64,000 nt of DNA from Pleomorphomonas sp. (GTDB taxonomy: Bacteria; Pseudomonadota; Alphaproteobacteria; Rhizobiales; Pleomorphomonadaceae). This document shows positions 10,290 through 28,965 of the stretch, one piece after another. The stretch is taken from assembly GCA_030603685.1 (NCBI GenBank), contig JAUVXG010000002.1, forward strand, positions 3,415-67,414, written 5' to 3'. How positions within the stretch are numbered: position 1 is the stretch's first letter; each line of letters opens with the position of its first letter. Under the pieces are notes generated by a model. It was not told the origin of the DNA. It made no database searches and saw nothing but the letters and a program-made list of their open reading frames with translations. The position numbers and the translations under genes were made by a program.

Positions 10290-11369
10290 TTGATACAATT
10301 ATTAGGTGTTAACCGTACATTTTACGCCCACGGCAACACGGATATTTTCTTGAAGAACACAGATGTGCGCGGCTCAGCAGGAACCGCTCGTTCCCAAATA
10401 CAGAGCTTCGAGGACGGCGTGGAGAAAGTCGGAAAAGTTCCCGCGCGACTCTATAAATACAGAGCTTTCAGCACCCGCATGCTCGACTCGCTGGTCGAGG
10501 ATCAGCTGTTCTTTGCGGATCCCGGCACCTTCAACGATCCTCTCGACACGAAGCCGTCGCTCGATCCCGACATCGATGCGGATGCGCTGGCAGATATCCT
10601 TTTCCGGCTGGTGGAGCGACGTACCCATGATGAGATGAGTGCTGCCGCCAAGGCGATAAAGTACCGCGGCCCAAAGACCGTTAGTCACATTGCTGAATAC
10701 AGTCGGAAGCGTGCTGAACGGTCGATTGCAGAGGTTCGATACAGCGCGACGGACCCCACTTACGAGGTGGAAGATCCCGCCAAGTTTCTTTTCAGCCAAT
10801 ATGTCGAGACTGAGCTCATGCGTCGGTATGAGAAGGGTATATTCTCTCTCGCCGAGCGGCCGAATTGTCCATTGATGTGGAGCCATTATGGCGATCAACA
10901 CATGGGAGTTTGCATAGGGTACTCGGTGCCCGAGCAAGCCGAGGGGGACCTTTACCGGGTTAAGTACGGCGGAGACAGGTTGGTCGCGGCTTCCGAAGTA
11001 GCCGCGATGCTCGATGGGGATGAGAAAGCTCGTCGCAAGGTGGACGAGGCTGTTCTTACCCGTAAGGCAGCAGCTTGGCACTACGAGAAGGAGTGGCGAC
11101 TGATAGGTCCGCGCGGCCTCCAGGACTCCGGTTTGGAACTGGAGGAAGTCGTGTTCGGAATGCGCTGCTCCGCAGCCGTGAAGTATGCTGTCGTTCGCGT
11201 TCTTTCGGATCGTCGGCGCCCGGTGACGTTCTCAGAGATTTCTGTGCGGCCGGGAAAGTTCACGCTTAAGAAGGAAGAAGTGTCCATGGATGAGCTCCTC
11301 GAATTTTCGAGGCCGCGGCGCTCTTTGGACGTCAATGATTTTATTGAGGACCTGGACGGGGGCGACTGA
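10290..11369 (+). CDS. DUF2971 family protein (start uncertain; a GTG at 10365 is also possible)
   Basis: The signature LYKYRAFSTRMLDSLVEDQLFFADPGTFNDPLD is typical of DUF2971. The upstream leader is AT-rich. Confidence 0.65.
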   Translation: MIQLLGVNRTFYAHGNTDIFLKNTDVRGSAGTARSQIQSFEDGVEKVGKVPARLYKYRAFSTRMLDSLVEDQLFFADPGTFNDPLDTKPSLDPDIDADALADILFRLVERRTHDEMSAAAKAIKYRGPKTVSHIAEYSRKRAERSIAEVRYSATDPTYEVEDPAKFLFSQYVETELMRRYEKGIFSLAERPNCPLMWSHYGDQHMGVCIGYSVPEQAEGDLYRVKYGGDRLVAASEVAAMLDGDEKARRKVDEAVLTRKAAAWHYEKEWRLIGPRGLQDSGLELEEVVFGMRCSAAVKYAVVRVLSDRRRPVTFSEISVRPGKFTLKKEEVSMDELLEFSRPRRSLDVNDFIEDLDGGD

Positions 11370-11503
11370 GCATGTATGCCCGCATGGGCGAGACCCGAGC
11401 AGGACTAGGCTGACGAGTTGTTTATTGTTGCTAAAGCTAGGAAGCATCCGAGAACCTGGATCCCGACCTTCTGGGGCACTTTGGGCCGAAATTCTCCAGG
11501 AGG

Positions 11504-11791
11504 TCAATTATCTACATTTTCGTCACTAGAGCGTCCCGGCTCTGCCAGCCGTTCTCTTGCTGACACTCGGAATCTGATACGGCCCAGATAGTCGTCGACC
11601 TCGGTTGCGACTTCTACCCCTAGGGTGGCGAGACACAGTCTGAGCTTTTCGACCGTTTTCGTTGATGTCGATTTGCCCTGTTCCATTCGAAAAATGGTCG
11701 CACGGCTGACGCCCGCCGCGTCGGCTAGCTCACGCTGCGACATACCTAGGGCTCGGCGACCGGCCCTTATCATCAAGTTCAGATCACTCAT
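11504..11791 (-). CDS. XRE-family HTH transcriptional regulator
   Basis: LGMSQRELADAAGVSRATIFRMEQGKSTSTKTVEKL is a classical Cro/C1 HTH. The ORF extends to 11893, but the ATG at 11791 avoids overlap with the divergent AAA+ gene. Confidence 0.75.
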   Translation of the reverse strand: MSDLNLMIRAGRRALGMSQRELADAAGVSRATIFRMEQGKSTSTKTVEKLRLCLATLGVEVATEVDDYLGRIRFRVSARERLAEPGRSSDENVDN

Positions 11792-11873
11792 GGCTCTGCG
11801 TGGCAGCTGACGAACTCGCCAGTTCTGAGCCAGCCGATTGAACGCGTCAAACGAGCGCATCCAGAAGACAAGA

Positions 11874-14389: not shown

Positions 14390-17300
14390 ATGGACGCCGT
14401 CGAGAGAGAACCGGAAGCGGACAGAATTCAAAGGATCTTTCGCGATCTTAGTGATGAGGAGGTTGTCGACCTCGAACGGGTAAGTTCGCTCCTTTCCTTG
14501 GGCATGGCTGCCGGAATTGGGTGGAACGAGCTTCTACAATCCCAGCGAATTCTCATCGTTGCCGAGGCTGGTACCGGAAAGACTCATGAATGCCAGCAAC
14601 AGCAACGCTTGCTTTGGGAAGCTGGTGAACCTGCATTCTTCTTCGAGCTAGCCACACTGGCCACCACCGAACCGCGCAAACTTCTCAGCCCGGATGAGGA
14701 GGCACGGTTTGATGCCTGGCTCACGGCGCAGTCGGATGTAGCGACCTTCTTTCTCGATTCCATTGATGAGCTGAACTTCACCTCAGGTTCCTTCAAGGCC
14801 GCCTTGCTCCAACTCAATCGAGCTCTCGGAGGGCAGCTCGGTCGAGCTAGAGTTGTCATTACGACGCGACCGGTTCCCTTCGATCAACAGGTGACTAGGC
14901 TTTTGTTGCCGGTTCCGGAAAGTAATGATGCCCCCCTCAGCGCCGAGCAACTAGCCGATATTTCGCTTGGGCGAAGCGCTAAGAAGACAGACGAGACGGC
15001 TCCGCCGGCCTGGCGAAGCGTGGGCCTTCTACCCCTGAATGACGAGCAAATTCGTCAAATGGCCATTACCCAGCGCGTCTCCGATGTCGACAGCCTCCTC
15101 TTGGATATCCGACAGCGGAACGCCGAAGACTTCGCAAGACGGCCGCAGGATCTGATCGAACTCTGCGCGGACTGGAACAGTGCACGACGAATCCGATCTC
15201 ACGGGGAGCAGGTAGCCGAGAACATTAGGGTAAAGCTGCTCCCCCGACGCCAAGAGAAAGCCCCGCTGTCCGGGGATCGCGCACTCGAAGGCGCTCGACG
15301 GTTGGCGCTGGCTGCGCTATTGGCCAGAAAGCTGACGATCCGCCATAGCGCAGAGGCGGACCTGGGTGGACCGAGCGAACCCGCCCTCGATCCGGCGAGA
15401 GTTCTTTACGACTGGACCCTAGAGGAACGCGCCACCTTGCTGGAGCGTGCATTGTTCGGCGTCGCCAGTTACGGTCGCGTTCGTTTCCACCACCGTTCCG
15501 TTTTGGAATACTTGGCGGCCGAGCAAATCGAAGCGATGCTTTCTAGAGGGATGTCGATCAAGGCGGCGAAGCGTCTGCTTTTTGCGGAGACCACCCAAGG
15601 CTCCGATATCGTGCGCCCGTCAATGCGCCCCGTCGCGGCCTGGATGGCGGGAAGGCGCCGTGGCTTTTTTGACGAGGTGCTACGACGCGAGCCGGAGGCG
15701 CTGCTGAATCTCGCCGACCCCCAGGCACTCGATCTGGAGCAGCGACGACAGGCCCTGAATGCCTTCGTGGCCCGCTACGGAGTGGGTGGATGGAGAGGAC
15801 TAAGGGTTCCCTTCATTCAGGCTCATCGCTTTGTCTCGCCGGAACTGGCACCGGATGTGACCAGAATCTGGAACAGTGGAATCCAGAACAGCGAGGTTCG
15901 CGATCTGTTGCTCACGCTGATCGAAGCGGGGCGGCTGCTCGATTGCGAAAGCATAGTGCATGACTTGGCAATTGCTGATGATACCCCTCTCGGAGAGAGG
16001 CTTGCCGCCATCGATGCGCTCGTGGCGCTGAATTCGCCCTCGCTCAGCGAAGTAATGCGGCTGATGCAGACACGACCGGAGGTCTGGACGGATCAGGTCG
16101 TTCGCCGGATGATTCCGCGCGTTTTTCCAAAACACATGAGCGTGGAGCAGCTCTCATTACTGTTGAAGCGCGTCGGCGAGGATCGAATCCTCATAGACGA
16201 CCTCACCTGGTATCTTCCGCGGATCATCGCATCCCCATCGTTTCCGGATACCTTGCTTGAGCCCTTGCGGGCGTGTCTGACCGAGTGTCTCGTCGAGGGG
16301 GCGTCCTGGACGGCGGCATGGCCCCACTTCGCGACGGCAAGGGCTTACCTGGCACCGTCTCTCGCGCAGGTCTGTCTCAAACTGCTCGAAAATGGACAAC
16401 GGACCAGAGACACGTTGCGCTCCGCCGCCCTGGCTTTTCGCTTCGGCAACGATAACGGAATGTGTGGCGAGCCCATACAGAGGCTGCTAGAGGCGCGCGA
16501 AGATTTCTCAAGCGCCGAGCGCGAGGCGGCGTTCTGGGCCGAGGACGAGTTTCTCCAATCCCTCCATTCGGAGCCAAGACCGTTCGAGCGGCTCTGGGAA
16601 TTAGGGCGAAACGAAACACTAATGCCGACCTCGGAAAAAGACCTTCCGTGGATTCTGGCGGGCATCGGTGATCGTGGACGCTCGTTTGACGACCGAGCAT
16701 TTCTGCTGGAGATTGCGGGACGCTGCCTGCGGCCCGACGGGGTATCATGGCAGGATTATGCGGCCGCACTGAGAGTCAGAGTGAATGATCAGCCGTTGTT
16801 GGTCGCGACGATCGACGACTGGCTCAAGCCAAGGCCGGTGGACCCGCGGCAAGAGGAATGGCAACGCGAGCATCAACGCCGCGTAGACGAGCAGAAGGAA
16901 AAGGAGGCTCGGGCACGTGAAAGTTGGATCGCGTTTTGGAAAAGGGTCTCCAGCGACCCGAGCAGCGCATTCACCGATGAAAGCTCCTACAGTACTGTTT
17001 GGAACCTTTGGACGGCGATGGAGCGCGCCGGCGCTAACAGTCGGGCCTCAGGATGGAACAGACGCTTCATCGAGAGCAATTTCGGCAGAGAGGTCGCCGA
17101 ACTTCTCCGAGCGGCCTTGGGTCCTATTTGGCGCGCGGACCGGCCGACGCTTGCGATGGAGCGAAAGCCGAAGAGGCGGACAACGACCTACGTCCGATGG
17201 CAATTGGGACTTACCGCTCTAGCCGCCGAGTCCGAGGATCCGGGCTGGGCTCTGAAGCTGACCGATGAGGAAGCCGAGACTGCCGCTCGATACGCTCCCA

Positions 17301-18769
17301 TTGAGTTGAACGCTTTCCCGACATGGTTCGAAACGTTCGCTTCGGCGCACCCTGGCGTTCTGGACCGAACGATCGGGGCTCTTCTCACCTTTGAACTTAA
17401 GCAATCGGCACGTTCGTCACAGTGGTTCTCGCCGATCTTGCAGAACCTTACGCACACGACATCGGCTGTAGCCGCGTTGTTTATTCCGAGATTGCGAAGG
17501 TGGCTTGACGATTTTGGCGATCGGCTTCGCAGAGGCGAAAGCCTTGAAGCGGCGAGCGAGCGGCTGCAGCAGGTTATCGAGGTACTTCTCCAGCATGGTG
17601 ACACCGAGACAAGGGAGCACATCGTCTCACTCGCCAAGCGCCGACTAAGACGCCTCGGGCGGCGGTTTGAGAGCGTTTGGCTGGCGGTTCTTCTTCGGCT
17701 TGAGCCCGCAGCCGGAGTTGCAGCCCTCGAACGAATCCTGGCGCGGATCCCCGTCTCCCCCGATTCAACCGCTCTGGATTGGTTCGGCCAACTCTTCGGC
17801 GAGCGGCGCCGCGGAACGCTGATCGATCTTTCTCAACCGGGGTTTACTCCGGGCTTGCTGCTCCGATTGACTCGGCGCGCTTACATCCACGTTCGGCCAA
17901 TGGATGACGTGCGTCACGAGGGATCCTATTCCCCCGGCCGAAGGGATCATGCCGAGCGCGGGAGGGGAACCATTCTATCCGCCTTGCTTCAAACCAAGGG
18001 GCCGGCCGGATGGGCTGCCAAACTCGAAATGGCCAATGATCCTCTGTTCGGCGACTTTCGCGATCGGGCCTTAGTCGTTGCACTGGAGAAGGCGGCGGAG
18101 GAGGTGGACAACGCCGTACTGAGCGATACGGACATAGCCAACCTCAACCGTTTCAACGAAGCGCGCCCTACCAGCCGCGAAGCCATGTTCGCTCTTATGC
18201 GCGATCGGCTGGACGATCTCGACGAGTTGTTGCTGGAAGACGTCTCGCCTCGCGAAAGCTGGGCGAAGATCGACGAGGAGCGCATCATGCGCCGGGAGAT
18301 TGCCCGGGAGTTGCTCAATCATGCCAATAATTGTTACACGGTCGACCAAGAGGCCGCCACAGCGGATGAGAAGGAAACCGACATCCGTCTGAGAGCTATG
18401 TCCGGTCATCAAGGCGTCGTGGAGCTGAAGATTGGCGAAAAGCCGAGATCCGCAGCCGACCTACGCGATGCGCTGACAAACCAACTGGTAAGGAAGTATA
18501 TGGCAGCCGACGAGTGCCGGGCCGGATGCTTACTGATAACGCTCGCGACCGATCGGACCTGGAGCCATCCCGAGAGCGGACAGAGTCTGGCTTTCAAAGC
18601 GTTGATCGACTGGCTGAACAGCGAAGCCCAGAAGATTGTCGTCCGTGCGGCGGGGGAAATTCGACTTTACGTCAAGGGGCTCGATCTTCGCCCAAGGCTT
18701 GCCCCTGAAAGGACCGCGCCGATCAAACCATCGGCTCCTACCCGTCGCAAAGGACGAACGCAGAAGTAG
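14390..18769 (+). CDS. NACHT/STAND P-loop NTPase (1459 aa) with long helical repeats and a C-terminal PD-(D/E)xK-like nuclease domain
   Basis: Walker A is AEAGTGKT (aa 58-65) and Walker B is FFLDSIDE. VVITTRP matches the NACHT TSRP-type motif. The C-terminus reads ...KETDIRLRAMSGHQGVVELKIGEK...TNQLVRKY, a D...ExK arrangement (aa ~1331-1347). Confidence 0.75.
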   Translation: MDAVEREPEADRIQRIFRDLSDEEVVDLERVSSLLSLGMAAGIGWNELLQSQRILIVAEAGTGKTHECQQQQRLLWEAGEPAFFFELATLATTEPRKLLSPDEEARFDAWLTAQSDVATFFLDSIDELNFTSGSFKAALLQLNRALGGQLGRARVVITTRPVPFDQQVTRLLLPVPESNDAPLSAEQLADISLGRSAKKTDETAPPAWRSVGLLPLNDEQIRQMAITQRVSDVDSLLLDIRQRNAEDFARRPQDLIELCADWNSARRIRSHGEQVAENIRVKLLPRRQEKAPLSGDRALEGARRLALAALLARKLTIRHSAEADLGGPSEPALDPARVLYDWTLEERATLLERALFGVASYGRVRFHHRSVLEYLAAEQIEAMLSRGMSIKAAKRLLFAETTQGSDIVRPSMRPVAAWMAGRRRGFFDEVLRREPEALLNLADPQALDLEQRRQALNAFVARYGVGGWRGLRVPFIQAHRFVSPELAPDVTRIWNSGIQNSEVRDLLLTLIEAGRLLDCESIVHDLAIADDTPLGERLAAIDALVALNSPSLSEVMRLMQTRPEVWTDQVVRRMIPRVFPKHMSVEQLSLLLKRVGEDRILIDDLTWYLPRIIASPSFPDTLLEPLRACLTECLVEGASWTAAWPHFATARAYLAPSLAQVCLKLLENGQRTRDTLRSAALAFRFGNDNGMCGEPIQRLLEAREDFSSAEREAAFWAEDEFLQSLHSEPRPFERLWELGRNETLMPTSEKDLPWILAGIGDRGRSFDDRAFLLEIAGRCLRPDGVSWQDYAAALRVRVNDQPLLVATIDDWLKPRPVDPRQEEWQREHQRRVDEQKEKEARARESWIAFWKRVSSDPSSAFTDESSYSTVWNLWTAMERAGANSRASGWNRRFIESNFGREVAELLRAALGPIWRADRPTLAMERKPKRRTTTYVRWQLGLTALAAESEDPGWALKLTDEEAETAARYAPIELNAFPTWFETFASAHPGVLDRTIGALLTFELKQSARSSQWFSPILQNLTHTTSAVAALFIPRLRRWLDDFGDRLRRGESLEAASERLQQVIEVLLQHGDTETREHIVSLAKRRLRRLGRRFESVWLAVLLRLEPAAGVAALERILARIPVSPDSTALDWFGQLFGERRRGTLIDLSQPGFTPGLLLRLTRRAYIHVRPMDDVRHEGSYSPGRRDHAERGRGTILSALLQTKGPAGWAAKLEMANDPLFGDFRDRALVVALEKAAEEVDNAVLSDTDIANLNRFNEARPTSREAMFALMRDRLDDLDELLLEDVSPRESWAKIDEERIMRREIARELLNHANNCYTVDQEAATADEKETDIRLRAMSGHQGVVELKIGEKPRSAADLRDALTNQLVRKYMAADECRAGCLLITLATDRTWSHPESGQSLAFKALIDWLNSEAQKIVVRAAGEIRLYVKGLDLRPRLAPERTAPIKPSAPTRRKGRTQK

Positions 18770-18775
18770 CCTCGT

Positions 18776-19300
18776 TTATATGAGGGCGATGTCCCCGTCT
18801 TGATAGGCACTGAACGCCATATCGATCTCGTTCGGCGTCATATAAAGCCCACCGCATGCCGCATCGAGAAACCGTCGTACGCACATAAGGCCATCCTGCG
18901 TTCCGCTGTTGATCAATGCCATTGGCGGACGACCGCCGAACAGTGGAACCTTGTTGGGCGTCCTCAGCCACGCGACGCCCTCCCGTTCGTCCGATTGTAG
19001 TACGCCGAGGGATTGGTGGATGCCGAGAACGATCGAGATGCGCATGAGCGTGTCAACGTTCAGCATGATGTCCCGACACTCTCGAACCGCGTTCGTCCAT
19101 TTGCGGTAAGTGGAACGCGACGGCATTCCGAGGATGAGCAGGCGCTCCTCCTCACTTAATCCCCAAAGCTCGGCGATGTTCAGAAAGGTCCGCAGCCCGG
19201 GCGCACCGAGTCTACGGCGATTTGCGCGAGAGAAGCGCTCCGCGGCCGAGAGCAGCATGTCGTGGGCGCCATCAAACGCACCGCGCTTCCGGGTTACCAT
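18776..19300 (-). CDS. MbcA/ParS/Xre-type antitoxin-like protein (Xre-like HTH plus DUF2384)
   Basis: RISIVLGIHQSLGVLQSDEREGVAWLRTPNKVPLFGGRPPMALINSGTQDGLMCVRRFLDA matches the DUF2384 toxin-binding domain pattern. The ATG at 19300 has AAGGAG 6 nt upstream, whereas the ORF track start at 19402 has no comparable site. Confidence 0.75.
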   Translation of the reverse strand: MVTRKRGAFDGAHDMLLSAAERFSRANRRRLGAPGLRTFLNIAELWGLSEEERLLILGMPSRSTYRKWTNAVRECRDIMLNVDTLMRISIVLGIHQSLGVLQSDEREGVAWLRTPNKVPLFGGRPPMALINSGTQDGLMCVRRFLDAACGGLYMTPNEIDMAFSAYQDGDIALI

Positions 19301-19439
19301 GTCTGCTCCTTCGGCTGTTCGGTCTTCCCTTGTCGCTGTCCGGTGAGCAGGAGGCGGGCACGTGGCCGCTTCCTTTCTTTTATGCAGGCGAGAACCTGTC
19401 ACGCCTACTTGAGCTGGAATGCGGGAGTGGGATTACAAG

Positions 19440-19961
19440 TTACGACTCCGCACTCAACGACGCGGACAACAAGCCACGCCGCTCGATCTCAGCCATCAGA
19501 GCCGCGTCAGAAAGCTTCGCCAACATGGCCTCTTCCGCGACGCGGACCCCACCTTTGCGAATGATCGGCAGCGCTTCCGAGAACAGAATGCCGTGTCTTT
19601 CGGCGACCGTTGCAAAGGCCTCATGGATGGTGCGGTAGTTTCGCTCGATCTCCGCGCCGATCTGTTGAAATGTGCCAACGACGTGAAACTCGTCGAACTC
19701 AGCTCTGATCGACGCGTCCGGATCGCCTTCGAGCATCAGGCGGCCGTCCTTTTTCTCGAAGACGACGGAGTGGTAGACGGTGTCCATAAAGATGGTCTGA
19801 TTTGCCGTAGCCTTTATCGAGATGGAGCCGTCGTCCTTAGCTTCAACTAGATAGTCCCAGGCCTTATCGTCTTCCCATTGGCCGATAACGATCCCATCGA
19901 CAGCTGCCTGCAGATCGGCGAGAAAACGACCGTGTCCAGTGTCTTGCGCTTCGGAAGCCAT
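19440..19961 (-). CDS. Hypothetical 173-aa protein upstream of the DUF2384 gene
   Basis: Clean ORF with GAGGA upstream of the ATG. I recognise no motif. Confidence 0.5.
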   Translation of the reverse strand: MASEAQDTGHGRFLADLQAAVDGIVIGQWEDDKAWDYLVEAKDDGSISIKATANQTIFMDTVYHSVVFEKKDGRLMLEGDPDASIRAEFDEFHVVGTFQQIGAEIERNYRTIHEAFATVAERHGILFSEALPIIRKGGVRVAEEAMLAKLSDAALMAEIERRGLLSASLSAES

Positions 19962-20172: not shown

Positions 20173-21066
20173 TCATCGCCTGAACCGAGGCGTCCAGCTC
20201 TCTATCATCGCTTCGTCGTCATCCTCGTCCTCGGCGTCCTCGACTCGGTTGGTGAGTGCCTTGCAGGTTAGGACGGTCAGCGTCTTCGCGTACTGGCCAA
20301 GGCCAACGATCTCTTCGGTGATTGCGTACCTACGCTCGCCATCCATCCAGTCATTGAGGAGCCCGTCGGCGGAGTCCCGCTGTCCGGTTCGGACATTGGC
20401 GGGGCGAGCATTGAAACGCTCGGTTAGGGTGCCGCCAGGAACCGGGGTACCTTTCCTAAGCCAGGTCAAACCCTTCGCCTGCTTCAAACCATCAGACATA
20501 AAACACCAGTCGATGGACTGTCCGCTACTCAGCACCACGGCGACGCCATCGGGAGTAAGTGACGCGTAGCGAATGGCGGTTGAGGTGAGCGAGGTCTCGC
20601 AAGCCTTAGCCAACGCCTCAATACCTGCGAGACCGGCTGCGTAATTGTCGATCGCCTTTTTAAATGGGCGCTCTGGCATCAACAGCGCAGCAGCGAAATA
20701 GTCCGCTTCCTGTTCGAAGGGGTCGGCTGACGCAAAGCCCGCCTGTGAACAGTGCACTCCGCCAATCAATAAGGCTTCCGGGTGGCCTTCAATGCAATAA
20801 TGCCCCAACTCGTGTGCGATGCTGAACCTTTGGAAGCCGCGGCTCGGAATGCGGGTAGCATAGAGGATGCCAAATTCATCACCGGCCTTGAGCAGCATGC
20901 CGGACACGCCCTCGGCGGTATCCGGCTTCGCCATGACGGTTATGCCTTTGTCGGTGGCAATGGCTTCGGGGTCAACGTGTAGAGTTTCGATCTTCATTTG
21001 ATGAAGTAACGCGCTGGCTGCAGCCTCCACCATGCTGCGTCGCGCCAGCCTCGGCCTTCCCGTCAT
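20173..21066 (-). CDS. ImmA/IrrE-family zinc metallopeptidase (CapP-like)
   Basis: FSIAHELGHYCIEGH (HEXXH). 297 aa. Its start overlaps the stop of the upstream XRE gene (21063..21066). Confidence 0.8.
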   Translation of the reverse strand: MTGRPRLARRSMVEAAASALLHQMKIETLHVDPEAIATDKGITVMAKPDTAEGVSGMLLKAGDEFGILYATRIPSRGFQRFSIAHELGHYCIEGHPEALLIGGVHCSQAGFASADPFEQEADYFAAALLMPERPFKKAIDNYAAGLAGIEALAKACETSLTSTAIRYASLTPDGVAVVLSSGQSIDWCFMSDGLKQAKGLTWLRKGTPVPGGTLTERFNARPANVRTGQRDSADGLLNDWMDGERRYAITEEIVGLGQYAKTLTVLTCKALTNRVEDAEDEDDDEAMIESWTPRFRR

Positions 21067-21419
21067 TTGTCATCCTCCGTTGCACCGCGCTTCCTGATCA
21101 GCAGGTTTACAAAGTCCTTCGCCAGCTCCAAGTCCTGCGACGTGAGTTTATGTAGGTCGCGGTGAAGACGCCCAACGGTTTCGGCCGACGCATCGGGAGT
21201 CTCCGAACGGCCCAGTAAATAGTCCGTCGTCACGTCGAGAGCGGATGCCAAAACCTTCAGGTTGTCGAACGACGGCTTTCGCGGCCCCGATTCGAAATGA
21301 GATACCGATGCCGGCGGCAAATTCGCCTTGGCGGCAAGTTGTGCCTGGCTAAGGCCGCGAAGCTCGCGAGCCGCCCTAAGACGTTCCTTAAAGATATCAG
21401 CTGGTTGATCAGGGGTCAT
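21063..21419 (-). CDS. XRE-family HTH regulator (ImmR/CapH-like)
   Basis: LRGLSQAQLAAKANLPPASVSHFESGPRKPSFDNLKVLASALDVTTDYLLGR. It is coupled to the ImmA-like gene. Confidence 0.8.
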   Translation of the reverse strand: MTPDQPADIFKERLRAARELRGLSQAQLAAKANLPPASVSHFESGPRKPSFDNLKVLASALDVTTDYLLGRSETPDASAETVGRLHRDLHKLTSQDLELAKDFVNLLIRKRGATEDDK

Positions 21420-21434
21420 GGCATTCCCGACATG

Positions 21435-21478
21435 GTTAACTTGACAATATCGCCACTTCGAGTCATCGTGGCGTTAAC
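21435..21478. promoter_or_regulatory. Putative operator/promoter between the XRE-ImmA pair and the ubiquitin-like operon
   Basis: GTTAAC (21435..21440), TTGACA (21441..21446), the inverted repeat CGCCAC (21451..21456) / GTGGCG (21468..21473), and GTTAAC (21473..21478). Confidence 0.35.
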
Positions 21479-21536
21479 GGCAATTTTCGCATGGCGGAGT
21501 CGCAAGTATCAACCCCTGAAATCCAAGGAAATGACC

Positions 21537-21779
21537 ATGGCAAAAAACGACAGGTTCGTGGTGAAGCATGGAGAGGACTGGGCGGTGAAGCGTGCGGGGG
21601 TGGCTCGGCCGGAAAGCGTGCACAATCTGCAAAGCCAAGCCGAACAGCAGGCCAAGTCCACAGTTCGTAGCTTAGGCGGCGGCGAGGTTCGCATTCAGGG
21701 ACGCGATGGAAAGTGGCGGGATTCCGACACGGTGGCGTCCGGTCGAGACCCATCACCGCCGCGCGACCGCAAACACTGA
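21537..21779 (+). CDS. DUF2188 domain protein
   Basis: MAKNDRFVVKHGEDWAVKRAGVARPESVH...GEVRIQGRDGKWRDSDT is the DUF2188 pattern. AGGAA lies 7 nt upstream. An alternative ATG is at 21531. Confidence 0.65.
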   Translation: MAKNDRFVVKHGEDWAVKRAGVARPESVHNLQSQAEQQAKSTVRSLGGGEVRIQGRDGKWRDSDTVASGRDPSPPRDRKH

Positions 21780-21795
21780 GTAAGGAGCAGTCGAA

Positions 21796-22521
21796 ATGAG
21801 TGCCATCGATGCATCGGAGCACAACTCGGCCAGCCGACTGGGTCAGGACAGGTTCATCGCGCGTATTGCCGACGAAAGCTTTGTCTTCCGTGATTTCCCC
21901 TTCGACGAGCGCGAAGTCACCGGTGGGCAATTGGCCGAACGGATGCGAGCCCATCCCGTAACTGACTACGTCGTGCTTCAGCAGCTTGAAACTCTCGAAT
22001 TGGAAACTCTGCGTCCAAATGAACCGGCCGACCTTGCGAAGTCGGTTCGCTTCTTCGTCATCCGCGGTGACGCCGTTTACAGCTTCGTCGTTGATGGTCT
22101 GAGCATGGTCTGGCCGCGAAAGGTCATCGATGGTCGCAGCATCAAGCGCCTTGTCGATAAGGAAGACGACGCCTTCGAGCTTCTGCTTGAGCGCGAGGAC
22201 GAACCTGATCTGATCATCGGCGACAAGGACGAGGTGCACCTTTCGGACGATGGCGTTGAGAAGTTCCAGACCCGGCCAGTCAAGCCGAAAGTCACGATCA
22301 TCGTCGAGGGTACGCCGCATGTCTGGACCAAGAAGACCATCAGTTACGATGAGGTGGTCACGCTAGAGGTCCCCGACTACCCACAGCATCCGGAGATCAC
22401 CTACTCGGTAAAGTACAAGAACGGCGTCGGTGAACGGCCCGAAGGTGTTCTCGTCAAGGGAGCATCGGTCAAGGTCAAGAATGGGATGATCTTCAGTGTT
22501 TCACCAACTGGTCAGTCATAA
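21796..22521 (+). CDS. Multi-ubiquitin (tandem beta-grasp/Ubl repeat) protein
   Basis: 241 aa with about three repeats of the pattern hhhVxGxxxxWxxxxIxxxxh...V (for example VTIIVEGTPHVWTKKTISYDEVV and YSFVVDGLSMVWPRKVIDGRSI). AAGGAG precedes the ATG. It sits immediately upstream of an E1-like gene. Confidence 0.65.
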   Translation: MSAIDASEHNSASRLGQDRFIARIADESFVFRDFPFDEREVTGGQLAERMRAHPVTDYVVLQQLETLELETLRPNEPADLAKSVRFFVIRGDAVYSFVVDGLSMVWPRKVIDGRSIKRLVDKEDDAFELLLEREDEPDLIIGDKDEVHLSDDGVEKFQTRPVKPKVTIIVEGTPHVWTKKTISYDEVVTLEVPDYPQHPEITYSVKYKNGVGERPEGVLVKGASVKVKNGMIFSVSPTGQS

Positions 22522-23701
22522 CGACGACATTCGTCGTCTCGTTGAGAAGGGATATGCGGTCGGGTACGATAGCGAATATCTGCTCGTTCGCGACATTCCC
22601 TATCTCGATGAGAGGATGGAGCTGCAAATCGGTGCCATCGTCACGAAGCTGGTCTTCAAGGATCAGAACTGCGTCGGGCAGGACGATCACCAGATATTCT
22701 TCGCCGGCTCCCATCCATACAACATCGACGGAACGCCCATCGCCAATCTGGGCGGAGGGACAACATCACTGGCGTTGAGTCCTGCGGCTGCCGATATCAA
22801 GGTGCAGCGGAGCTTCTCCAATAAGCCGTGGGTCAACGGAAAGGGGGTTGGGTTTCCGGATTTCTTCGCAAAGATCGAGAGCTATGTCGGTATCATTTCG
22901 GGGCCGGCCATCGAACTGCGGGGCGGCAACCCATATACGTTTCGTACAGTGGGAGCCGTTGCCTCGGACTCCGTGTTCAAGATTCACGACACTCTGACCA
23001 GTCGTGCCGAGATTGGGGATTTGTCAGCAAAGTTCAGGAACGAGGTGGTCGCGATAATTGGCCTTGGGGGCACTGGAGCTTATCTCCTGGATTTCCTGGT
23101 GAAGACGCCAGTTAGGGAAATCCGCGGCTTTGATCTCGATGATTTCCACGTTCACAACGCCTTCCGTTCACCCGGCAAACTAGATGAGGGCGAGTTTCAG
23201 TGCAGAAAGGCTGACGTCTATCAGGCTCGCTACGATAACTTTCGACATGGGTTGTCTCTAAGAGCGAAGTTCGTCGATGATTCCGCCGTGGACGATTTAG
23301 ATGGGGTGACCTTCGCTTTCGTGTGCGTCGACAAGGGGACATCGAGGGCGGGCGTCTTCGAGCTTCTGATGACCAAGAAGATCCCGTTCATTGACGTTGG
23401 AATGGGCCTGAAGCGGCGGGAAGGCGGGGCGCTCAATGGCATGATGCGCACCACATACTATTCCGAGAACGACGCGGAGAAAGTAAAGGGAAAAGGGCTT
23501 TCCGAACTGTCTGGACATGCCGACGATCTTTATCGCACCAATATCCAGATCGGCGAGCTGAATGCGCTCAATGCGGCTCTCGCGGTTATCAAGTACAAGC
23601 AGATAAAGGGATTCTACTTCGAAGAAGCCCCTACATATCATCTTCTCTTCGAGATCGCCGATCTGAAAACCACTCCCGAGTCGAACCTTGACGAAGATTG
23701 A
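22496..23701 (+). CDS. E2-like N-terminal domain fused to a ThiF/MoeB-type E1 adenylyltransferase
   Basis: The Rossmann motif IIGLGGTGAYLL (aa 187-198), GFDLDDFHVHNAFRSPG and FVCVDK fit the E1 nucleotide-binding core. The N-terminal ~165 aa contain SHPYN (aa 72-76), reminiscent of the E2 HPN motif. The GTG start overlaps the Ubl gene by 26 nt. Confidence 0.75.
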   Translation: MFHQLVSHNDDIRRLVEKGYAVGYDSEYLLVRDIPYLDERMELQIGAIVTKLVFKDQNCVGQDDHQIFFAGSHPYNIDGTPIANLGGGTTSLALSPAAADIKVQRSFSNKPWVNGKGVGFPDFFAKIESYVGIISGPAIELRGGNPYTFRTVGAVASDSVFKIHDTLTSRAEIGDLSAKFRNEVVAIIGLGGTGAYLLDFLVKTPVREIRGFDLDDFHVHNAFRSPGKLDEGEFQCRKADVYQARYDNFRHGLSLRAKFVDDSAVDDLDGVTFAFVCVDKGTSRAGVFELLMTKKIPFIDVGMGLKRREGGALNGMMRTTYYSENDAEKVKGKGLSELSGHADDLYRTNIQIGELNALNAALAVIKYKQIKGFYFEEAPTYHLLFEIADLKTTPESNLDED

Positions 23702-23729
23702 AACCATCGCCTCCCGTCGCGTCGAGTTC

Positions 23730-24098
23730 ATGCCCAAACAGCTTGAGCCGGGTATTCTCTACATCTCAGAGAAATACGGCACGGCAGCGCATCTCTGTGC
23801 ATGCGGCTGCGGCGCAAAGGTTCGCACACCGATTGGACCGACGGAATGGAAGGTGACCGATACTCCAAACGGTCCGAGCTTGTGGCCGTCGATCGGAAAT
23901 TGGCAGGAAGCCTGCCAATCTCACTACGTCATCGAGGCCGGCAGGATCATCTGGTGTGGAAAATGGACGCCGGAGCAAATCCTTGCGGGACGTCACGCGG
24001 AGGAGGCGCGGCGCGCGGCATACTATGAAGCTATGTATGCAAAGCAGCCGAGTTGGCTTGTCCGGGTTTGGCGCTGGCTTCGCTCTTTGGTCGGATAA
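23730..24098 (+). CDS. Small Cys-rich (zinc-ribbon-like) protein, DUF6527-like
   Basis: MPKQLEPGILYISEKYGTAAHLCACGCGAKVRTP...CQSHYVIEAGRIIWCGKW. The ORF opens at a TTG at 23688 that overlaps the E1 stop. The ATG at 23730 is the more conventional start. Confidence 0.6.
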   Translation: MPKQLEPGILYISEKYGTAAHLCACGCGAKVRTPIGPTEWKVTDTPNGPSLWPSIGNWQEACQSHYVIEAGRIIWCGKWTPEQILAGRHAEEARRAAYYEAMYAKQPSWLVRVWRWLRSLVG

Positions 24099-24302
24099 AG
24101 GGGCACCTAGCTTCAAGGAAAGTCCCTCATAACAGCCAAATGATCGTCTGGCGAAGACCTCGGGGAAATCCGCCAATCTCTGGGCTAAAGTCCGGGAGCG
24201 CTTTGGGCCAGGTTCGGACACCGAGGCGCGACCGGAAGGCCCGGACGGACGCAGCACAGAAGTAGCCAAGAGGCGATCGCTGAGGGGGGCGGTTTTTATT
24301 CC

Positions 24303-24566: not shown

Positions 24567-27311
24567 CTATGTTCCATGTCGCTCGTTGAACGACTTGACG
24601 ATTTCGGAAAGGGCCTTTGCCTCATCTTCCGAGTAGGGTTTGGCGCCAAACTCGGTGATGGTGGAGAGCGGTTGCGCATCTCCTACCTGAAGGGAAGCGG
24701 ATCCCACTTCTTTTTGCTGGACGCGGAAAGCACGCAGACTCAGCATCTCGTCCGTGATTTCAACTTCAGGTGGTTGCGCCCGGTTTGGCAACATCCGATC
24801 TAGCCAATCCGCGTAGGCATATAGCTTTTCAAGGCTGGTATCACCAAGCTGAACGATCTGAGCGACAAAGCTGTAAAACCGCTTGTAGCTTCTCAGAAGC
24901 TGCCGGAATTCCTCGTGTCGGCCTTCGTCGTCGTCGGCCTCAAATCGCGCTATGGCGTTGCGTACCAGCGCTTCCAGCGTAACGCGGTCTTCTGTCGCAA
25001 GCAGGCCCTTGAAAAAGACCGAGGCAAAACGCTCAATCTCGCCATTATCGAGATAGCCGAATGTGCGAATGCGTGTCTCCAACTGGTAGATTTGGTTCTT
25101 ATCAGAGACAGCTTCGAGGCTCGATACCTCATAGAAGGGGCGGAACGCCTCTTTGATCTCATCCATCGTATTCTGGAAGTCGAGAATGAAGGTCCGCTCT
25201 TTGCCTGGGTATGTGCGGTTCAGGCGGGAAAGAGTCTGCACCGCTTGAAGTCCCGCCAACTTCTTGTCGATATACATGCCGCAGAGCTTCGGCTGATCGA
25301 ACCCTGTCTGGTATTTTTCCGCTACAATAAGGACTTGATAGTCCGGGCTGTCGAAGCGCCCGGGGAGCTCGGTCTCGCTGAACTCGTTCAGCTCCGCTTC
25401 CGAATAGGAGGTGCCGTCGACATGAAGCTCGCCCGAAAAGGCGATGAGGGCCTTGAGGTCCGGATAGCCTTTGTCCTCGATATACGCCTTCAGGGCGAAA
25501 TAGTAGCGGAGCGCGCTTTCCCGGCTGGATGTGACGATCATTGCTTTCGCCTGACCATTCAACTCCGGCCTGACATGCCGCCTGAAATGCTCGACGATGA
25601 CCTCAACCTTCTGGCTGAGCGCCGTCGGATGTAGGGCGGCAAACCGGGCGACCTTTCGTTGCGCCCGCCGTGTGTCTAGCTGAGGGTCATCCTCAATGGC
25701 TTTTTCCAAGGCATAATAGGCCTTGTAAGTCATGTAGTGTTGCAGGACGTCGAGGATGAAGCCTTCCTCGATGGCCTGTCGCATAGAGTAGAGGTGGAAG
25801 GGATGCGGTAATCCATCCGTGCCAAATGTGCCGAAACGCTCAAGGGTGACGTTGCGAGGCGTCGCAGTGAAAGCGAAGTAACTGATGTTAGGCTGAGGGC
25901 CGCGCTGACGCTGATATTCTGCGATAAGCTCCTCAATCTCATCCGAGGTTCTAGATTCCTCCTCGCGGCTGAGGGCGTCACTCAACGCCTGAGCGCTCTT
26001 GCCCGACTGCGAACCATGTGCTTCGTCGATCAGGACGGCGAAACGCCGTGAGCCTTGGCCGGAAATCACACGAAGGTGTTCCGTGGAGAACTTCTGAATG
26101 GTCGTAATGATGACCTTCGCTTGGCCCTCAATGGCAGCTTTGAGCTGCCGCGATGTGCCGTCGATCTTGCGAACCACGCCGGGAGTCTGCTCGAACTGAG
26201 CGATCGTGCCTTGAAGTTGCCTGTCGAGAATGACGCGATCCGTGACGACAATCGCTGTATCGAAAATCGGCTCGTCGGCAGCGTCATGTAGCGTGACCAG
26301 CCGATGTGCCGTCCATGCAATGGTGTTGGATTTCCCCGATCCCGCCGAATGCTGGATGAGGTAGTTCTTGCCACTGCCGTTAGCGCTCGCATGAGCGAGC
26401 ATTTTCAGAACCGCGTCTATCTGGTGAAAGCGCGGAAAGATTAGCGCCTCCTTGCCGTCGCGCGTGTCTAGGTGGAGAAACCTCCCGATAATGTCGAGGA
26501 GAAGGTCGCGTGAGAAGATTGCACGGCCTTCCGGCTGATCAGCCCACAGATAGGCAACCCGGAAATCCCCTTCGAGGTTGGGATTTTCTGCTCCTCCGTT
26601 GTGCCCCCGATTGAAAGGAAGAAAGGTGGTTTTGCCGTTCTGAAGCCGAGTGGTCATGGAGACATTGTTCTGATCCACAGCAAAGTGAACCAGTGCACCC
26701 CGCTTGAAGGTCAGTAGCGGCTCATTCGCCGGTGCCCGGTCGTAGCGATATTGGCGCTCGGCATGCCGAAAGGTTTGGCCAGTCAACGTATTTTTCAATT
26801 CCAGTGTGGTCACAGGAAATCCGTTGACGAACAGAGCAACGTCAATAGCGTTCTCGTTCTTGGCGCTGTAGCGAAGTTGATTAATAACGCTGAGTATGTT
26901 GGCCTCGAACAGCTTTACCAGTGCCGGATTGACACCTGATGCCGGCCTAAAGGCCACAAGGAAAAATTTCAGGCTCGGAACGAGCTTCAACCCATTGCGC
27001 AGTACGTCCAGTGTGCCGCGCTGCTTCAGTCCCTGCTCAAGCTGCTTGAAGAACTCGGCTTCGGCGGACGGTCCATAGTGACTTTCCAGCTTCGCCCATT
27101 CGTCAGCCTGCGTTGCCTTGACGAACTCAATCACCAGCGCCTTGTCGAGCGCGAATGCCCGGTCATAGTCCGCCGGAGAGCGAGGACGATAGCCCTGCCG
27201 CTCGACCAGCGCCTTGCACAAATGGACTTCCAGTACTTCTTCCCGGTGAACGTTATCTTCGGCTAAGCCTTTGGCGTAAGGGTGGGATGTCGGCGGTTGT
27301 TCGTAGTTCAT
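24567..27311 (-). CDS. hsdR: Type I restriction enzyme R subunit (helicase/endonuclease), terminated by an in-frame TAG
   Basis: Helicase motif I is HSAGSGKSNTIAW and motif II is LIDEAHGSQSG. The ATG at 27311 overlaps the upstream stop as ATGA. Confidence 0.9.
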   Translation of the reverse strand: MNYEQPPTSHPYAKGLAEDNVHREEVLEVHLCKALVERQGYRPRSPADYDRAFALDKALVIEFVKATQADEWAKLESHYGPSAEAEFFKQLEQGLKQRGTLDVLRNGLKLVPSLKFFLVAFRPASGVNPALVKLFEANILSVINQLRYSAKNENAIDVALFVNGFPVTTLELKNTLTGQTFRHAERQYRYDRAPANEPLLTFKRGALVHFAVDQNNVSMTTRLQNGKTTFLPFNRGHNGGAENPNLEGDFRVAYLWADQPEGRAIFSRDLLLDIIGRFLHLDTRDGKEALIFPRFHQIDAVLKMLAHASANGSGKNYLIQHSAGSGKSNTIAWTAHRLVTLHDAADEPIFDTAIVVTDRVILDRQLQGTIAQFEQTPGVVRKIDGTSRQLKAAIEGQAKVIITTIQKFSTEHLRVISGQGSRRFAVLIDEAHGSQSGKSAQALSDALSREEESRTSDEIEELIAEYQRQRGPQPNISYFAFTATPRNVTLERFGTFGTDGLPHPFHLYSMRQAIEEGFILDVLQHYMTYKAYYALEKAIEDDPQLDTRRAQRKVARFAALHPTALSQKVEVIVEHFRRHVRPELNGQAKAMIVTSSRESALRYYFALKAYIEDKGYPDLKALIAFSGELHVDGTSYSEAELNEFSETELPGRFDSPDYQVLIVAEKYQTGFDQPKLCGMYIDKKLAGLQAVQTLSRLNRTYPGKERTFILDFQNTMDEIKEAFRPFYEVSSLEAVSDKNQIYQLETRIRTFGYLDNGEIERFASVFFKGLLATEDRVTLEALVRNAIARFEADDDEGRHEEFRQLLRSYKRFYSFVAQIVQLGDTSLEKLYAYADWLDRMLPNRAQPPEVEITDEMLSLRAFRVQQKEVGSASLQVGDAQPLSTITEFGAKPYSEDEAKALSEIVKSFNERHGT

Positions 27312-28351
27312 TCGCCGCCCCCAGAGACCGGAACCCAAATCTGTTTCAGGGGCAGCTTCACACGGGTCTCGTCGGAAAGGTCATTGTAGGTTCGGAACAG
27401 GGCGCGAAGGAGATCCGGCATCTGCCAGAGACGGAGCTTGAAGAAATTGTTGTCCAACTCCTTCTGGGCAACGCTATTGACCCCGCCGATGCTGACAAGA
27501 AGCCCCGTTCTCGCCTGCGTATTGGAAACAGAACCGATCAGCCGCAACACTACGTCATGGTTGGCTGCGCCATCGCTGGATTTCACCTGAACACAGATGC
27601 GGTCCTCGCCCAGGCCGAGCATGCCGCCAGCAGCGAGGATATCCACGCCACCATCAGGTCCAGGTGGAGAAACCTTAGTTGTATAGCCCTCCACGCGGAG
27701 TATTTCCGCCACGAGGTTCGCCAATGCATGGCCGGCGAACTCGCTCTTGATCAGCGAAATGATCTGCTGGTTCGCAATGTCCTCGATGTCGGTGGCGATT
27801 TCGTCCGCGTCCTCCTCATCATGGATGACGGGGACGGGCTTCGTGCCCTGCTTACCCAGAAGGGCACCGGGGTCTGTTCCCATTTTCAGCACGGATCGAA
27901 CTCGATCCAGCGCATTGTTGCGTGTGATCTCGCAGATGGTCATGAATGCGCCGAAAGAGTGCCGCAGGTCTTGCTTGAAGGAATCGCGCGGGACGGACTC
28001 GTTCAGCCATTTCACGGGCCGAGAATGGCGATAAGGGTCTCCGACATTGAAGGCATAGGGGCCGGTCACTTCGCCAATGGCAACGCCGGTCGTCAGCTTA
28101 CGCGGCATGACGACAAGATCCCCGATGGCAATTGTGTGTGCAAACTGGTTGAGCTGGGCGGAGAAGTTCTTCAGCCGGTTGAGGCCTTCTCCCGGCATGA
28201 CGTCGTGCAAATGCGCCAAGATGGCGTCGCGACCATTCAGGTTCGACAGGTCGCCGACTTCCAGAAAGCCCGGCAGCAGCCTGCCGGACAAGATGGCGGC
28301 AAGCTCGCGCTCACCCTGCTTGCCTGCGCGAACGATCCAAAGGCGCGTCAC
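27308..28351 (-). CDS. Mrr-like restriction endonuclease (PD-(D/E)xK, Mrr_cat) embedded in the Type I operon
   Basis: The C-terminal domain reads GPDGGVDILAAG...ICVQVKSSDG (D...QxK). The GTG at 28351 overlaps the upstream stop as GTGA. Confidence 0.7.
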   Translation of the reverse strand: MTRLWIVRAGKQGERELAAILSGRLLPGFLEVGDLSNLNGRDAILAHLHDVMPGEGLNRLKNFSAQLNQFAHTIAIGDLVVMPRKLTTGVAIGEVTGPYAFNVGDPYRHSRPVKWLNESVPRDSFKQDLRHSFGAFMTICEITRNNALDRVRSVLKMGTDPGALLGKQGTKPVPVIHDEEDADEIATDIEDIANQQIISLIKSEFAGHALANLVAEILRVEGYTTKVSPPGPDGGVDILAAGGMLGLGEDRICVQVKSSDGAANHDVVLRLIGSVSNTQARTGLLVSIGGVNSVAQKELDNNFFKLRLWQMPDLLRALFRTYNDLSDETRVKLPLKQIWVPVSGGGE

Positions 28352-28965
28352 GGCGTCTCCCCTCTCGCCATGCGGATTATCCAATTCTGCTCGACAAGCG
28401 CCGCGTTCAAAGCCGCCATTGCCACTTTCAGGTGCAGGATATCGACATGAATTTCGTCGATGAGAGGCGTGCCGTCCTTGGCTTTTGGCGTACCGTACTC
28501 GCCGTAGCGGAACGCCTCCGATCCACGATCGAGAGCCGCCAGTTCGTCACAGCGCTTGATGACCCAAGGCGGCACCGTTTTGCCAGCTTGCTGCTTGTGA
28601 TGCGCGTAGCTGCGAGCAAGCTTTCCGAGGTCGTGAATGTCTTTCGCCGCACGGACCTCTGGCGGCAGCCCTGCCTTCAAGAGAAGCTCGAAGGAATGCC
28701 GATAGAGAAACAGCGCCGCATTCGCGACTTGATAGTCTGCAACGCGCTTTTCAAGAATGGCCGCAATCAGCTCCTCGGCAGCGGCAAAGTATTGCTCGGC
28801 CAAAGCCCCATCACGCTCGGCCTGGATGAAAGGGCGGGAGAAGCCGCCGATCACGAAACCGAGCGGACCGCTCCATTCGTCGGGTCGCTCATGCTCCCCT
28901 GACAGAGGTTCGAAGAGCGGGCGCGACATTGCCTCTTTGGTGAAAAGGTCAGCTGATATTCGCAT
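28348..28965 (-). CDS. Hypothetical all-alpha protein (possibly HEPN-like), 205 aa
   Basis: The ATG at 28965 overlaps the hsdS stop as ATGA; the longer track ORF starting at 29100 would overlap hsdS by 136 nt. LYRHSFELLLKAGL and SEAFRYGEYG are only weakly HEPN-like. Confidence 0.5.
   Translation of the reverse strand: MRISADLFTKEAMSRPLFEPLSGEHERPDEWSGPLGFVIGGFSRPFIQAERDGALAEQYFAAAEELIAAILEKRVADYQVANAALFLYRHSFELLLKAGLPPEVRAAKDIHDLGKLARSYAHHKQQAGKTVPPWVIKRCDELAALDRGSEAFRYGEYGTPKAKDGTPLIDEIHVDILHLKVAMAALNAALVEQNWIIRMARGETP

Follow-up and report, generated by a model that had tools for sequence, protein, structure and literature searches.

A four-gene cassette in a Pleomorphomonas defence island is very probably an ordinary, complete Type II Bub operon, headed by a DUF2188 gene that recurs in front of many defence operons

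The bacterial operons known as '6E/DUF6527' were renamed Bub by Ye, Gong, Chambers & Corbett (bioRxiv 10.1101/2024.11.21.623953), who define the Type II form by three proteins, i.e., a ubiquitin-like protein (Ubl) named BubA, an E2-E1 fusion named BubBD and a DUF6527 protein named BubE, 'typically' without a JAB peptidase. In this type the stand-alone Ubl gene carries between one and three domains of the beta-grasp kind. The same study reports that CapH and CapP adjoin 31% of 544 Bub operons, that BubBD of Escherichia coli ZDHYS365 forms protein-protein conjugates, and that no Bub operon gave phage protection in E. coli. Here we compare with these systems a cassette at 21537-24098 of a 64,000-nucleotide stretch of Pleomorphomonas sp. 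DNA (positions 3,415 to 67,414 of contig JAUVXG010000002.1, assembly GCA_030603685.1; the whole stretch is hereafter called the window). An earlier note on this DNA had assigned the cassette to the '6E' class of Ubl conjugation operons described by Iyer, Burroughs and Aravind; this was borne out, and the class now carries the name Bub. We conclude with high confidence that the cassette is an ordinary, complete Type II Bub operon (formerly 6E.2) located on a mobile defence island. Its genes, and those of the regulators that precede it, are as follows (aa, amino acids; E, expect value; HTH, helix-turn-helix).

20173..21066, minus strand: capP, zinc metallopeptidase (Peptidase_M78/ImmA-like); PADLOC capP E 6.6e-63 over profile positions 3-241 of 242, Pfam Peptidase_M78 E 6.8e-14
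21063..21419, minus strand: capH, XRE-type HTH repressor, divergent from the Bub operon; PADLOC capH E 1.3e-23, Pfam HTH_3 E 1.9e-17
21420..21536, no strand: divergent intergenic region of 117 bp, presumed promoter and CapH operator, as read from the sequence
21537..21779, plus strand: DUF2188 leader gene, 80 aa; PF09954 E 3.3e-16, PADLOC PDC-S16 E 8.1e-17
21796..22521, plus strand: bubA, 241 aa, Ubl3 class with three beta-grasp domains and a TGQS end; Multi_ubiq PF14452 E 7.7e-41 in three stretches
22496..23701, plus strand: bubBD, 401 aa, E2-E1 fusion with a GTG start; DUF6791 PF20590 at residues 10-166, E 2e-38, and ThiF PF00899 at residues 178-303, E 6.8e-9
23688..24098, plus strand: bubE, 136 aa, predicted zinc-binding serine protease with a TTG start; DUF6527 PF20137 E 1e-22
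24275..24294, plus strand: weak terminator-like hairpin with a T-run, 3' of bubE, from a consensus scan whose site count did not exceed that of shuffled sequence

The gene content, the domain families and every catalytic and metal-binding residue of the cassette are those of a Type II Bub operon. The four packed, same-strand open reading frames (ORFs) predicted earlier (80, 241, 401 and 122-136 aa) are all present, and their spacing is operon-like, with a gap of 16 nucleotides (nt) between the DUF2188 gene and bubA, an overlap of 26 nt between bubA and bubBD, and an overlap of 14 nt between bubBD and bubE. All four proteins scored over the curated Pfam cut-offs, and the Multi_ubiq, ThiF and DUF6527 profiles that had been named beforehand each found their protein. 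The N-terminal domain of the 401-aa protein had been taken for Prok-E2_B; its Pfam match is DUF6791 instead, with no Prok-E2 profile matching that domain at E <= 0.1. For bubE, the 136-aa form is favoured over the 122-aa one because in an alignment of homologues conservation extends upstream of the internal ATG.

A scan limited to one genome per species returned 22 loci with BubBD relatives at 39-75% identity. BubA was encoded directly upstream in all 21 loci that are complete on that side and a BubE match lay downstream in 21 of the 22, with the same gene overlaps as in the window, the 26-nt bubA/bubBD overlap included. When clustered at 90% identity, the BubBD family at E <= 1e-5 yields 6,889 clusters or more, and a 76-kb NCBI contig as well as a Logan assembly carry the DUF2188/bubA end of the operon, with DUF2188 and BubA proteins identical to those of the window. 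Because the BubA and BubE neighbours and the overlaps are conserved and the family is large, the window locus is an ordinary member of a widespread, characterised family. PADLOC-DB v2.0.0 holds no model that matches BubA or BubE and gives BubBD weak Cap2 matches only; a PADLOC run with this version would therefore call only capH, capP and PDC-S16 and miss Bub.

The earlier note saw in the cassette a system with neither a JAB nor a serine protease gene and with a Cys-rich protein of unrecognised role; this claim of novelty fails, since DUF6527 is itself a peptidase family, and what seemed to be a missing peptidase is, by sequence, the Cys-rich protein BubE. The published work describes BubE as a serine protease that has a Ser-His dyad next to a C4 zinc site and that strips BubA conjugates in cells; its S92A and H102A mutations abolished cleavage in vitro and restored conjugates in cells (10.1101/2024.11.21.623953). 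The CxCGCG...CxxH motif noticed in the window protein is real (C37-A-C39-G-C41-G and C76-Q-S-H79) and supplies the predicted zinc site C37/C39/C41/C76 together with one half of the predicted S68-H79 dyad. C39, C41, C76, S68 and H79 are invariant in comparison with the Citrobacter and E. coli BubE proteins, C37 is kept wherever the reference text is intact, and the zinc and dyad residues are conserved in an alignment across the 22 loci. The C-terminal tail (...SWLVRVWRWLRSLVG) reads as amphipathic, as described for the family, in which BubE bears a hydrophobic extension at one terminus. A peptidase domain thus lies inside one of the four proteins, with all six zinc and dyad residues kept, and the earlier note's own reservation about its JAB-less point comes into force. 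The absence of JAB is real: neither the four proteins and the genes flanking them nor ten alternative-frame ORFs gave a JAB match at E <= 0.1 (and these ORFs held no other peptidase domain either), so that the scan of the ORFs rules out a JAB hidden in another frame. This absence is, however, the norm for published Type II Bub operons, which typically lack JAB because BubE is a serine protease, and would need none because their BubA does not start out as a fusion in need of cleavage.

The window's BubBD is 33% identical to E. coli ZDHYS365 BubBD over its full length (E 4e-59; E. coli sequence from Table S2 of 10.1101/2024.11.21.623953). It consists of a DUF6791 E2-like domain (~1-166, with S108, K110 and H65) and a ThiF-type adenylation domain (~178-401), the latter with a glycine-rich loop (G189-x-G191-G192-T-G194), the adenylation residue R224 and the crossover-loop residue Y346. 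In the E. coli protein, mutation of R219 (adenylation), Y342 (crossover loop) or S106 (E2) each abolished conjugation, and the Type II E2 serine is accompanied by an invariant Lys and His (10.1101/2024.11.21.623953). S108, in the motif F-S-N-K-P, aligns with E. coli S106, and R224 with R219; Y346 (DDLYRTNIQ) falls at the paper-numbered Y342, exactly where the machine-read E. coli sequence has a one-residue gap. In 20 homologues taken from genome assemblies no variation occurs at H65, S108, N109, K110, P111, R224 or Y346, and in 34 database homologues the same seven positions are invariant except for K110 and P111 (>= 90%). E. coli BubBD shares none of the three cysteines, which stand at positions 59, 236 and 277, and residues 278-401, which include the crossover region, contain none.

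An AlphaFold2 (AF2) model of BubBD (mean predicted local distance difference test score, pLDDT, 71.6) had as its best Foldseek match in the PDB the Citrobacter BubCD structure 9eav_B (E 3.7e-11; also 9eae and 9ea5), followed by UBA5 (6h78) and then ThiF (1zkm), with Cap2 at rank 27. In the model the DUF6791 domain is built as a helix, a four-strand meander, a long loop to S108 and a further helix, a topology compatible with a truncated UBC (E2) fold.

The 241-aa protein had been predicted to hold about three tandem beta-grasp repeats, in line with which we found the three Multi_ubiq stretches and a match over residues 36-240 to PDB 9cd2, the Ubl3 of the E. coli ZDHYS365 Type II Bub system (E 2.2e-23). 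Ubl3 proteins form Ca2+-dependent dimers and filaments (10.1101/2024.11.21.623966). As far as the machine-read reference sequences allow, the Citrobacter Ubl3 residues D30, E62, E68, D85, D130 and E147 correspond to E38, E70, E76, D92, D138 and E155 of the window's BubA, and E. coli D73 and E136 to D92 and E155. Because these acidic residues, which belong to the Ca2+ sites within and between dimers, are conserved, BubA can probably dimerise and form Ca2+ filaments.

Several points weigh against the assignment to Type II Bub or against parts of it. A profile built from 19 of the N-terminal domains found among PDB sequences only a spurious match, 9s1t (a de novo designed helical barrel), hhalign gave the DUF6791 domain and Citrobacter BubB a probability of 0.6%, and whole-chain Foldseek reports the E1 half alone and so provides no match for a UBC fold in DUF6791; the E2 role of this domain would follow from the published E. 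coli S106A result. A second point concerns the C-terminus of BubA. Ubiquitin-like proteins typically end in Gly, but Ser is the last residue in all 35 Type II BubA proteins with a readable end (21 of the 22 BubBD loci, the window and 13 DUF2188 loci) and in E. coli BubA. The ends read TGQS, TGES, ANRS or ATRS, and TDKS in E. coli; a Gly at -3 occurs in the window's clade only, and the last codons of bubA (22510-22521) fall within the conserved overlap with the start of bubBD. Since E. coli BubA was employed unprocessed in vitro (10.1101/2024.11.21.623953), the terminal Ser probably forms the reactive end; the window's BubA may be used unchanged with its TGQS end or, in the window's clade, may be trimmed to Gly239. 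Moreover, the E. coli and Citrobacter residue numbers derive from a machine-read supplement, with a two-residue offset and one dropped Tyr, and 'defence' rests on genomic context, no Bub operon having yet been shown to protect against phage.

Upstream of the operon, a predicted pair of XRE- and ImmA-type regulators was recognised by PADLOC as CapH and CapP, whose genes overlap by 4 nt. Lau et al. 2022 (bioRxiv 10.1101/2022.04.27.489752) describe CapH and CapP as divergently oriented upstream of the defence operon that they control. The intergenic region between capH and the DUF2188 gene contains a TTGACA hexamer at ~21441-21446 and, at 21427-21497, an imperfect palindrome (GTTAAC..CGCCAC-N11-GTGGCG-TTAAC), an inverted repeat with 30-nt arms that are 70% complementary, which is the presumed CapH operator; consensus scans for promoters and terminators performed no better than on shuffled sequence. 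By analogy with the described pair, we infer that CapP of the window cleaves CapH in response to DNA damage.

The conjugation chemistry, the deconjugation, the DNA-damage regulation and the defence role of the cassette can be proposed by homology, the chemistry and the regulation being modelled on the E. coli and Citrobacter experiments. According to this proposal, CapH would repress the divergent promoter until DNA damage or phage infection activates the metallopeptidase CapP, which would cleave CapH and thereby free transcription of DUF2188-bubA-bubBD-bubE. Within a BubBD dimer, the ThiF-type domain (loop 189-194, R224) would adenylate the C-terminal carboxylate of BubA; BubA would then pass as an oxyester to the crossover-loop Tyr346 and on to Ser108 of the E2-like domain, aided by K110 and H65, to be moved finally to lysines of target proteins. 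BubE, as a zinc-stabilised beta-sandwich with its Ser68-His79 dyad and amphipathic tail, would cleave BubA conjugates and so restrain the pathway, and the DUF2188 gene would form a promoter-proximal module of its own, which accompanies the regulators of many defence operons.

To place this last gene we surveyed 88 DUF2188 loci (8 exact look-ups and the best 80 of 281 metagenome matches), a sample biased to close relatives of the window protein. The earlier note had remarked on a DUF2188 gene in first position, an observation that proved real and recurrent; what did not stand is its attachment to the Bub system, as the gene belongs to the promoter-proximal, regulatory part of many different defence operons. 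It comes first behind a divergent regulator, with a median gap of 18 nt to the next gene. At 33 loci this regulator is a WYL protein of the BrxR/CapW type, and at roughly as many it is CapH/CapP, namely 23 by clustering of upstream ORFs (31 when any CapH or CapP match in the locus is counted). Bub follows at 17 of the 88 loci, the other 71 having no Bub gene, and the operon types headed by the DUF2188 gene number at least nine and are unrelated to one another, the protein being 64-100% identical across loci. What stands directly after it is as follows (CBASS, cyclic-oligonucleotide-based antiphage signalling system; pAgo, prokaryotic Argonaute).

17 loci: Type II Bub
11 loci: CBASS patatin effector
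7 loci: LmuA-like protein
6 loci: ThsB-like TIR
5 loci: PDC-M14A-like
4 loci: QatA (with QatBCD)
3 loci: TIR-APAZ of short pAgo systems
3 loci: HNH
2 loci: TRIP13 of type III CBASS
the remainder of the 88 loci: others

Seen from the Bub side, DUF2188 occurs in 2 of the 22 BubBD loci (L005, Bradyrhizobium, and L014), both with close CapH/CapP orthologues, and is absent from the other 20; at four of the BubBD loci, with a more distant CapP, the interval between capP and bubA is by its coordinates too small for the gene. Close relatives of the window's DUF2188 protein form 870 clusters, nearly all of exactly 80 aa, and share an almost invariant tail (RDSDTV..G.DP.PPRDKKH) that lies outside the Pfam domain.

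The protein is also conserved where its neighbours are not. It is 76-81% identical where the adjacent BubBD is just 32-35% identical, 68-80% identical where CapP drops to 27-30%, and 64-84% identical at loci without a match to the window's CapH, CapP or Bub (mostly BrxR/CapW loci). The regulator, DUF2188 and effector modules therefore recombine independently, with DUF2188 the most conserved of them. As a side observation, four loci (L037, L045, L049, L051) carry the same capP-capH-DUF2188 cassette as the window (64-82%) with a distant Bub lineage (BubBD 32-35%), and two others (L036, L072) carry the window's Bub lineage (64-67%) with a distant CapP (27-28%).

Since these loci have only the position of the gene and the type of regulator in common, we favour a role for DUF2188 connected with induction, or with some conserved component of host or phage, over one connected with Bub. 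We tentatively suggest, as a possibility that falls short of an even chance, that the protein is a general third component of DNA-damage-responsive defence regulation, common to CapH/CapP and BrxR/CapW operons, with a conserved component of host or phage as its target rather than one effector, e.g., as a HicB-like module gating or timing the output. Its position, its conservation and its independence of the effector were observed across Bub, CBASS, Thoeris-like, Qat, short pAgo, Lamassu-like and HNH operons. The gene could equally be an autonomous small defence gene (PDC-S16) that merely uses an inducible promoter.

Parts of this picture have precedents. Lau et al. 2022 list CapP-CapH-DUF2188 operons with other effectors and treat them as particular systems, and cite Burroughs & Aravind 2020 for a link between DUF2188 and defence; Huiting et al. 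draw a DUF2188 gene beside the CBASS operon of Pseudomonas aeruginosa Pa011, and PADLOC lists the family as candidate PDC-S16. The supplementary files of the Bub mechanism paper (10.1101/2024.11.21.623953), in so far as they were accessible, do not mention DUF2188, the one element of the cassette that the Bub papers leave uncovered, and an incomplete search of the literature found no account of how widely it is spread among systems and behind regulators of the two families. This breadth is the sole part of our results that goes beyond the literature searched, and we regard it as a modest but real lead.

As for structure, the AF2 model of the DUF2188 protein (mean pLDDT 78) has the order beta-beta-beta-alpha-beta-beta, which agrees with the topology given for DUF2188 and the HicB N-terminal domain in mSphere 2026 (PMC13621843), where Rhodopseudomonas palustris RPA3313 (PDB 5JN6) is discussed. 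Foldseek against the PDB gave no match at E <= 0.001 (best E 0.5; HicB-like antitoxin 3k6q at a probability of 0.38), and neither phmmer nor a profile of 35 DUF2188 sequences matched any PDB sequence, 5JN6 included.

A closer tie to the cassette, with DUF2188 serving in this sub-lineage as a functional partner of Bub (a substrate, an adaptor or an inhibitor of BubBD) and not as a general leader, is unlikely in our estimation. In its favour, the order capP-capH / DUF2188-bubA-bubBD-bubE holds in 15 of the 15 DUF2188-Bub loci with readable upstream DNA, the gene lies as near to bubA as the 16-nt gap places it, and the conserved tail resembles a binding motif. Yet a protein ~64-84% identical heads CBASS patatin, TRIP13, ThsB-like TIR, QatA, TIR-APAZ, HNH and LmuA-like genes, and the disparity between its identity and that of the adjacent BubBD argues against co-evolution of the two.

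It is less likely still that the cassette represents a distinct, peptidase-less Ubl class in which DUF2188 would count as a fifth, integral component, with the Cys-rich protein serving as an adaptor that binds metal or as an E3-like factor. This reading could draw on the lack of a JAB domain anywhere in the cassette, on the DUF2188 gene directly before bubA here and at 17 further loci, and on the very weak protease activity of BubE in vitro, which needed 48 h and whose authors had weighed a role in Ubl transfer before testing proteolysis (10.1101/2024.11.21.623953). It is already contradicted by the published BubE data: the residues equivalent to S92 and H102, i.e., S68 and H79, are invariant here, the JAB-less layout is the published definition of Type II Bub, and DUF2188 and Bub mostly occur without each other.

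Two further identities are so improbable that they can be set aside. For a cassette of the ThiF/MoeB type that serves as a sulfur carrier or in peptide modification (by thiocarboxylate or microcin-like chemistry) one could cite the ThiF Pfam match, the presence of ThiF, MccB and PaaA among the Foldseek matches, and TcdA-type dehydratases as the sole matches in a PDB sequence search (E ~3e-3), but the partner is a 241-aa triple beta-grasp protein and not of ThiS/MoaD size, no sulfurtransferase or biosynthetic genes lie nearby, the DUF6791 fusion is found specifically in Bub, as is the DUF6527 protease, BubCD leads the structural matches, and E. coli BubBD makes protein-protein conjugates. For a thioester-based Bil-type or CBASS Cap2/Cap3-type system, the PADLOC E1-E2 (Cap2) models match weakly (E >= 2.6e-4, over ~50 residues of the Rossmann nucleotide-binding loop) and Cap2 does appear in the Foldseek results, but the cassette has no JAB, no CD-NTase and no separate E2, and conserves Ser108 and Tyr346 in place of any E1- or E2-site Cys. 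A Bil identity was accordingly rejected for want of a separate E2, a JAB and a Cys-containing E1 domain, and a Type II CBASS identity because CD-NTase and JAB are missing and the Cap2 models are weak.

The Type II Bub operon lies in a region, from ~3 kb to 34 kb, where G+C is 0.52-0.60, down from 0.65-0.70. The flanks of this region are chromosomal (PriA and LeuC, the latter 95% identical to that of Pleomorphomonas koreensis). The location that had been predicted, a defence island on a mobile element, was upheld by the low-G+C stretch, the recombinases and the type I restriction-modification system; the G+C drop, the gene content and the chromosomal flanks therefore justify the description. 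The window contains no tRNA genes, none being found at either border of the island, and no Rfam families. The other features of the island are as follows.

3972-9357, minus strand: recombinase-type trio at the left edge of the island, of 224 aa (no family match), 994 aa (Integrase_2) and 558 aa (Phage_integrase)
10290-13940, plus strand: DUF2971 protein (359 aa), then a 700-aa FtsH-like AAA+/Peptidase_M41 protein
14390-18769, plus strand: ORF of 1,459 aa without a Pfam or PADLOC match, which carries a Walker-A-like motif (AEAGTGKTH) close to the N-terminus
18776-19402, minus strand: Xre/MbcA/ParS-type antitoxin (Xre-like HTH and toxin-binding C-domain), with no adjacent RES-type toxin gene
19440-19961, minus strand: 173-aa ORF between the antitoxin and capP, no family match
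24567-27338, 28965-30869 and 30866-32917, minus strand: HsdR, HsdS and HsdM of a type I restriction-modification system
27308-28384 and 28348-29100, minus strand: Mrr_cat nuclease gene and a 250-aa ORF without assignment, both between hsdR and hsdS

The trio at the left edge resembles the tyrosine-recombinase trio of a mobile element, and the DUF2971/FtsH-like pair looks like cargo and not like a housekeeping FtsH. The 1,459-aa ORF, which stands directly upstream of the genes for the Xre antitoxin and CapP, could encode a large defence NTPase that has yet to be characterised. Among the loci fetched, the 173-aa ORF recurs solely in an identical contig (L023).

Taken together, these results give names and residue-level predictions to four 'hypothetical' genes and remove a false lead, in that the cassette is not a peptidase-less ubiquitin system. 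A complete, CapH/CapP-linked alphaproteobacterial example of the Ubl3 class is a further candidate for tests of Bub targets and phage protection beyond E. coli. If the role of DUF2188 is a common one, it would concern the switching or buffering of inducible bacterial immune operons generally, and not the window locus alone.

Set beside the systems already described, the locus stands closest to the Type II Bub operon of E. coli ZDHYS365, with which it shares the three core genes and their order, the lack of JAB, the E2 and E1 residues of BubBD, the C4 site and Ser-His dyad of BubE, a Ubl3 BubA ending in Ser, and CapH/CapP upstream; it differs in sub-lineage, in the BubA end (TGQS versus TDKS), in the addition of DUF2188 between capH and bubA, and in its alphaproteobacterial host. 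Type I Bub (6E.1), known from BubAB, BubCD and BubE of Citrobacter sp. RHBSTW-00271, has the E1 fold closest to that of the window's BubBD in the PDB, a DUF6527 protease, a Ubl3-type BubA with the Ca2+-site residues and an oxyester-based chemistry that the window's system would share. Type I, however, fuses the Ubl to the E2 and JAB to the E1, whereas the window's operon fuses E2 to E1 and lacks JAB; the E2 helper residues are His and Asp in the former and Lys and His in the latter, and by hhalign the two E2 domains have no detectable sequence-profile similarity. Bil and Type II CBASS likewise represent E1/E2-based conjugation in defence islands, and Cap2 is also an E2-E1 fusion, but both systems use a catalytic Cys and JAB, and CBASS conjugates its CD-NTase and not a Ubl, none of which is seen in the cassette. 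Proteins of the DUF2188/HicB N-terminal type have in common with the window's protein the Pfam family and a predicted three-strand sheet, helix and extra strands; the window's gene has no adjacent HicA-like toxin gene, and its product carries the additional conserved C-terminal tail. Finally, the window shares with the CapH/CapP systems of Lau et al. the divergent pair of an HTH protein and an M78 metallopeptidase upstream of a defence operon, and, compared with their CapH/CapP-DUF2188 operons, orthologues of its DUF2188 protein were found here also behind the unrelated BrxR/CapW regulators and in front of at least nine effector types.

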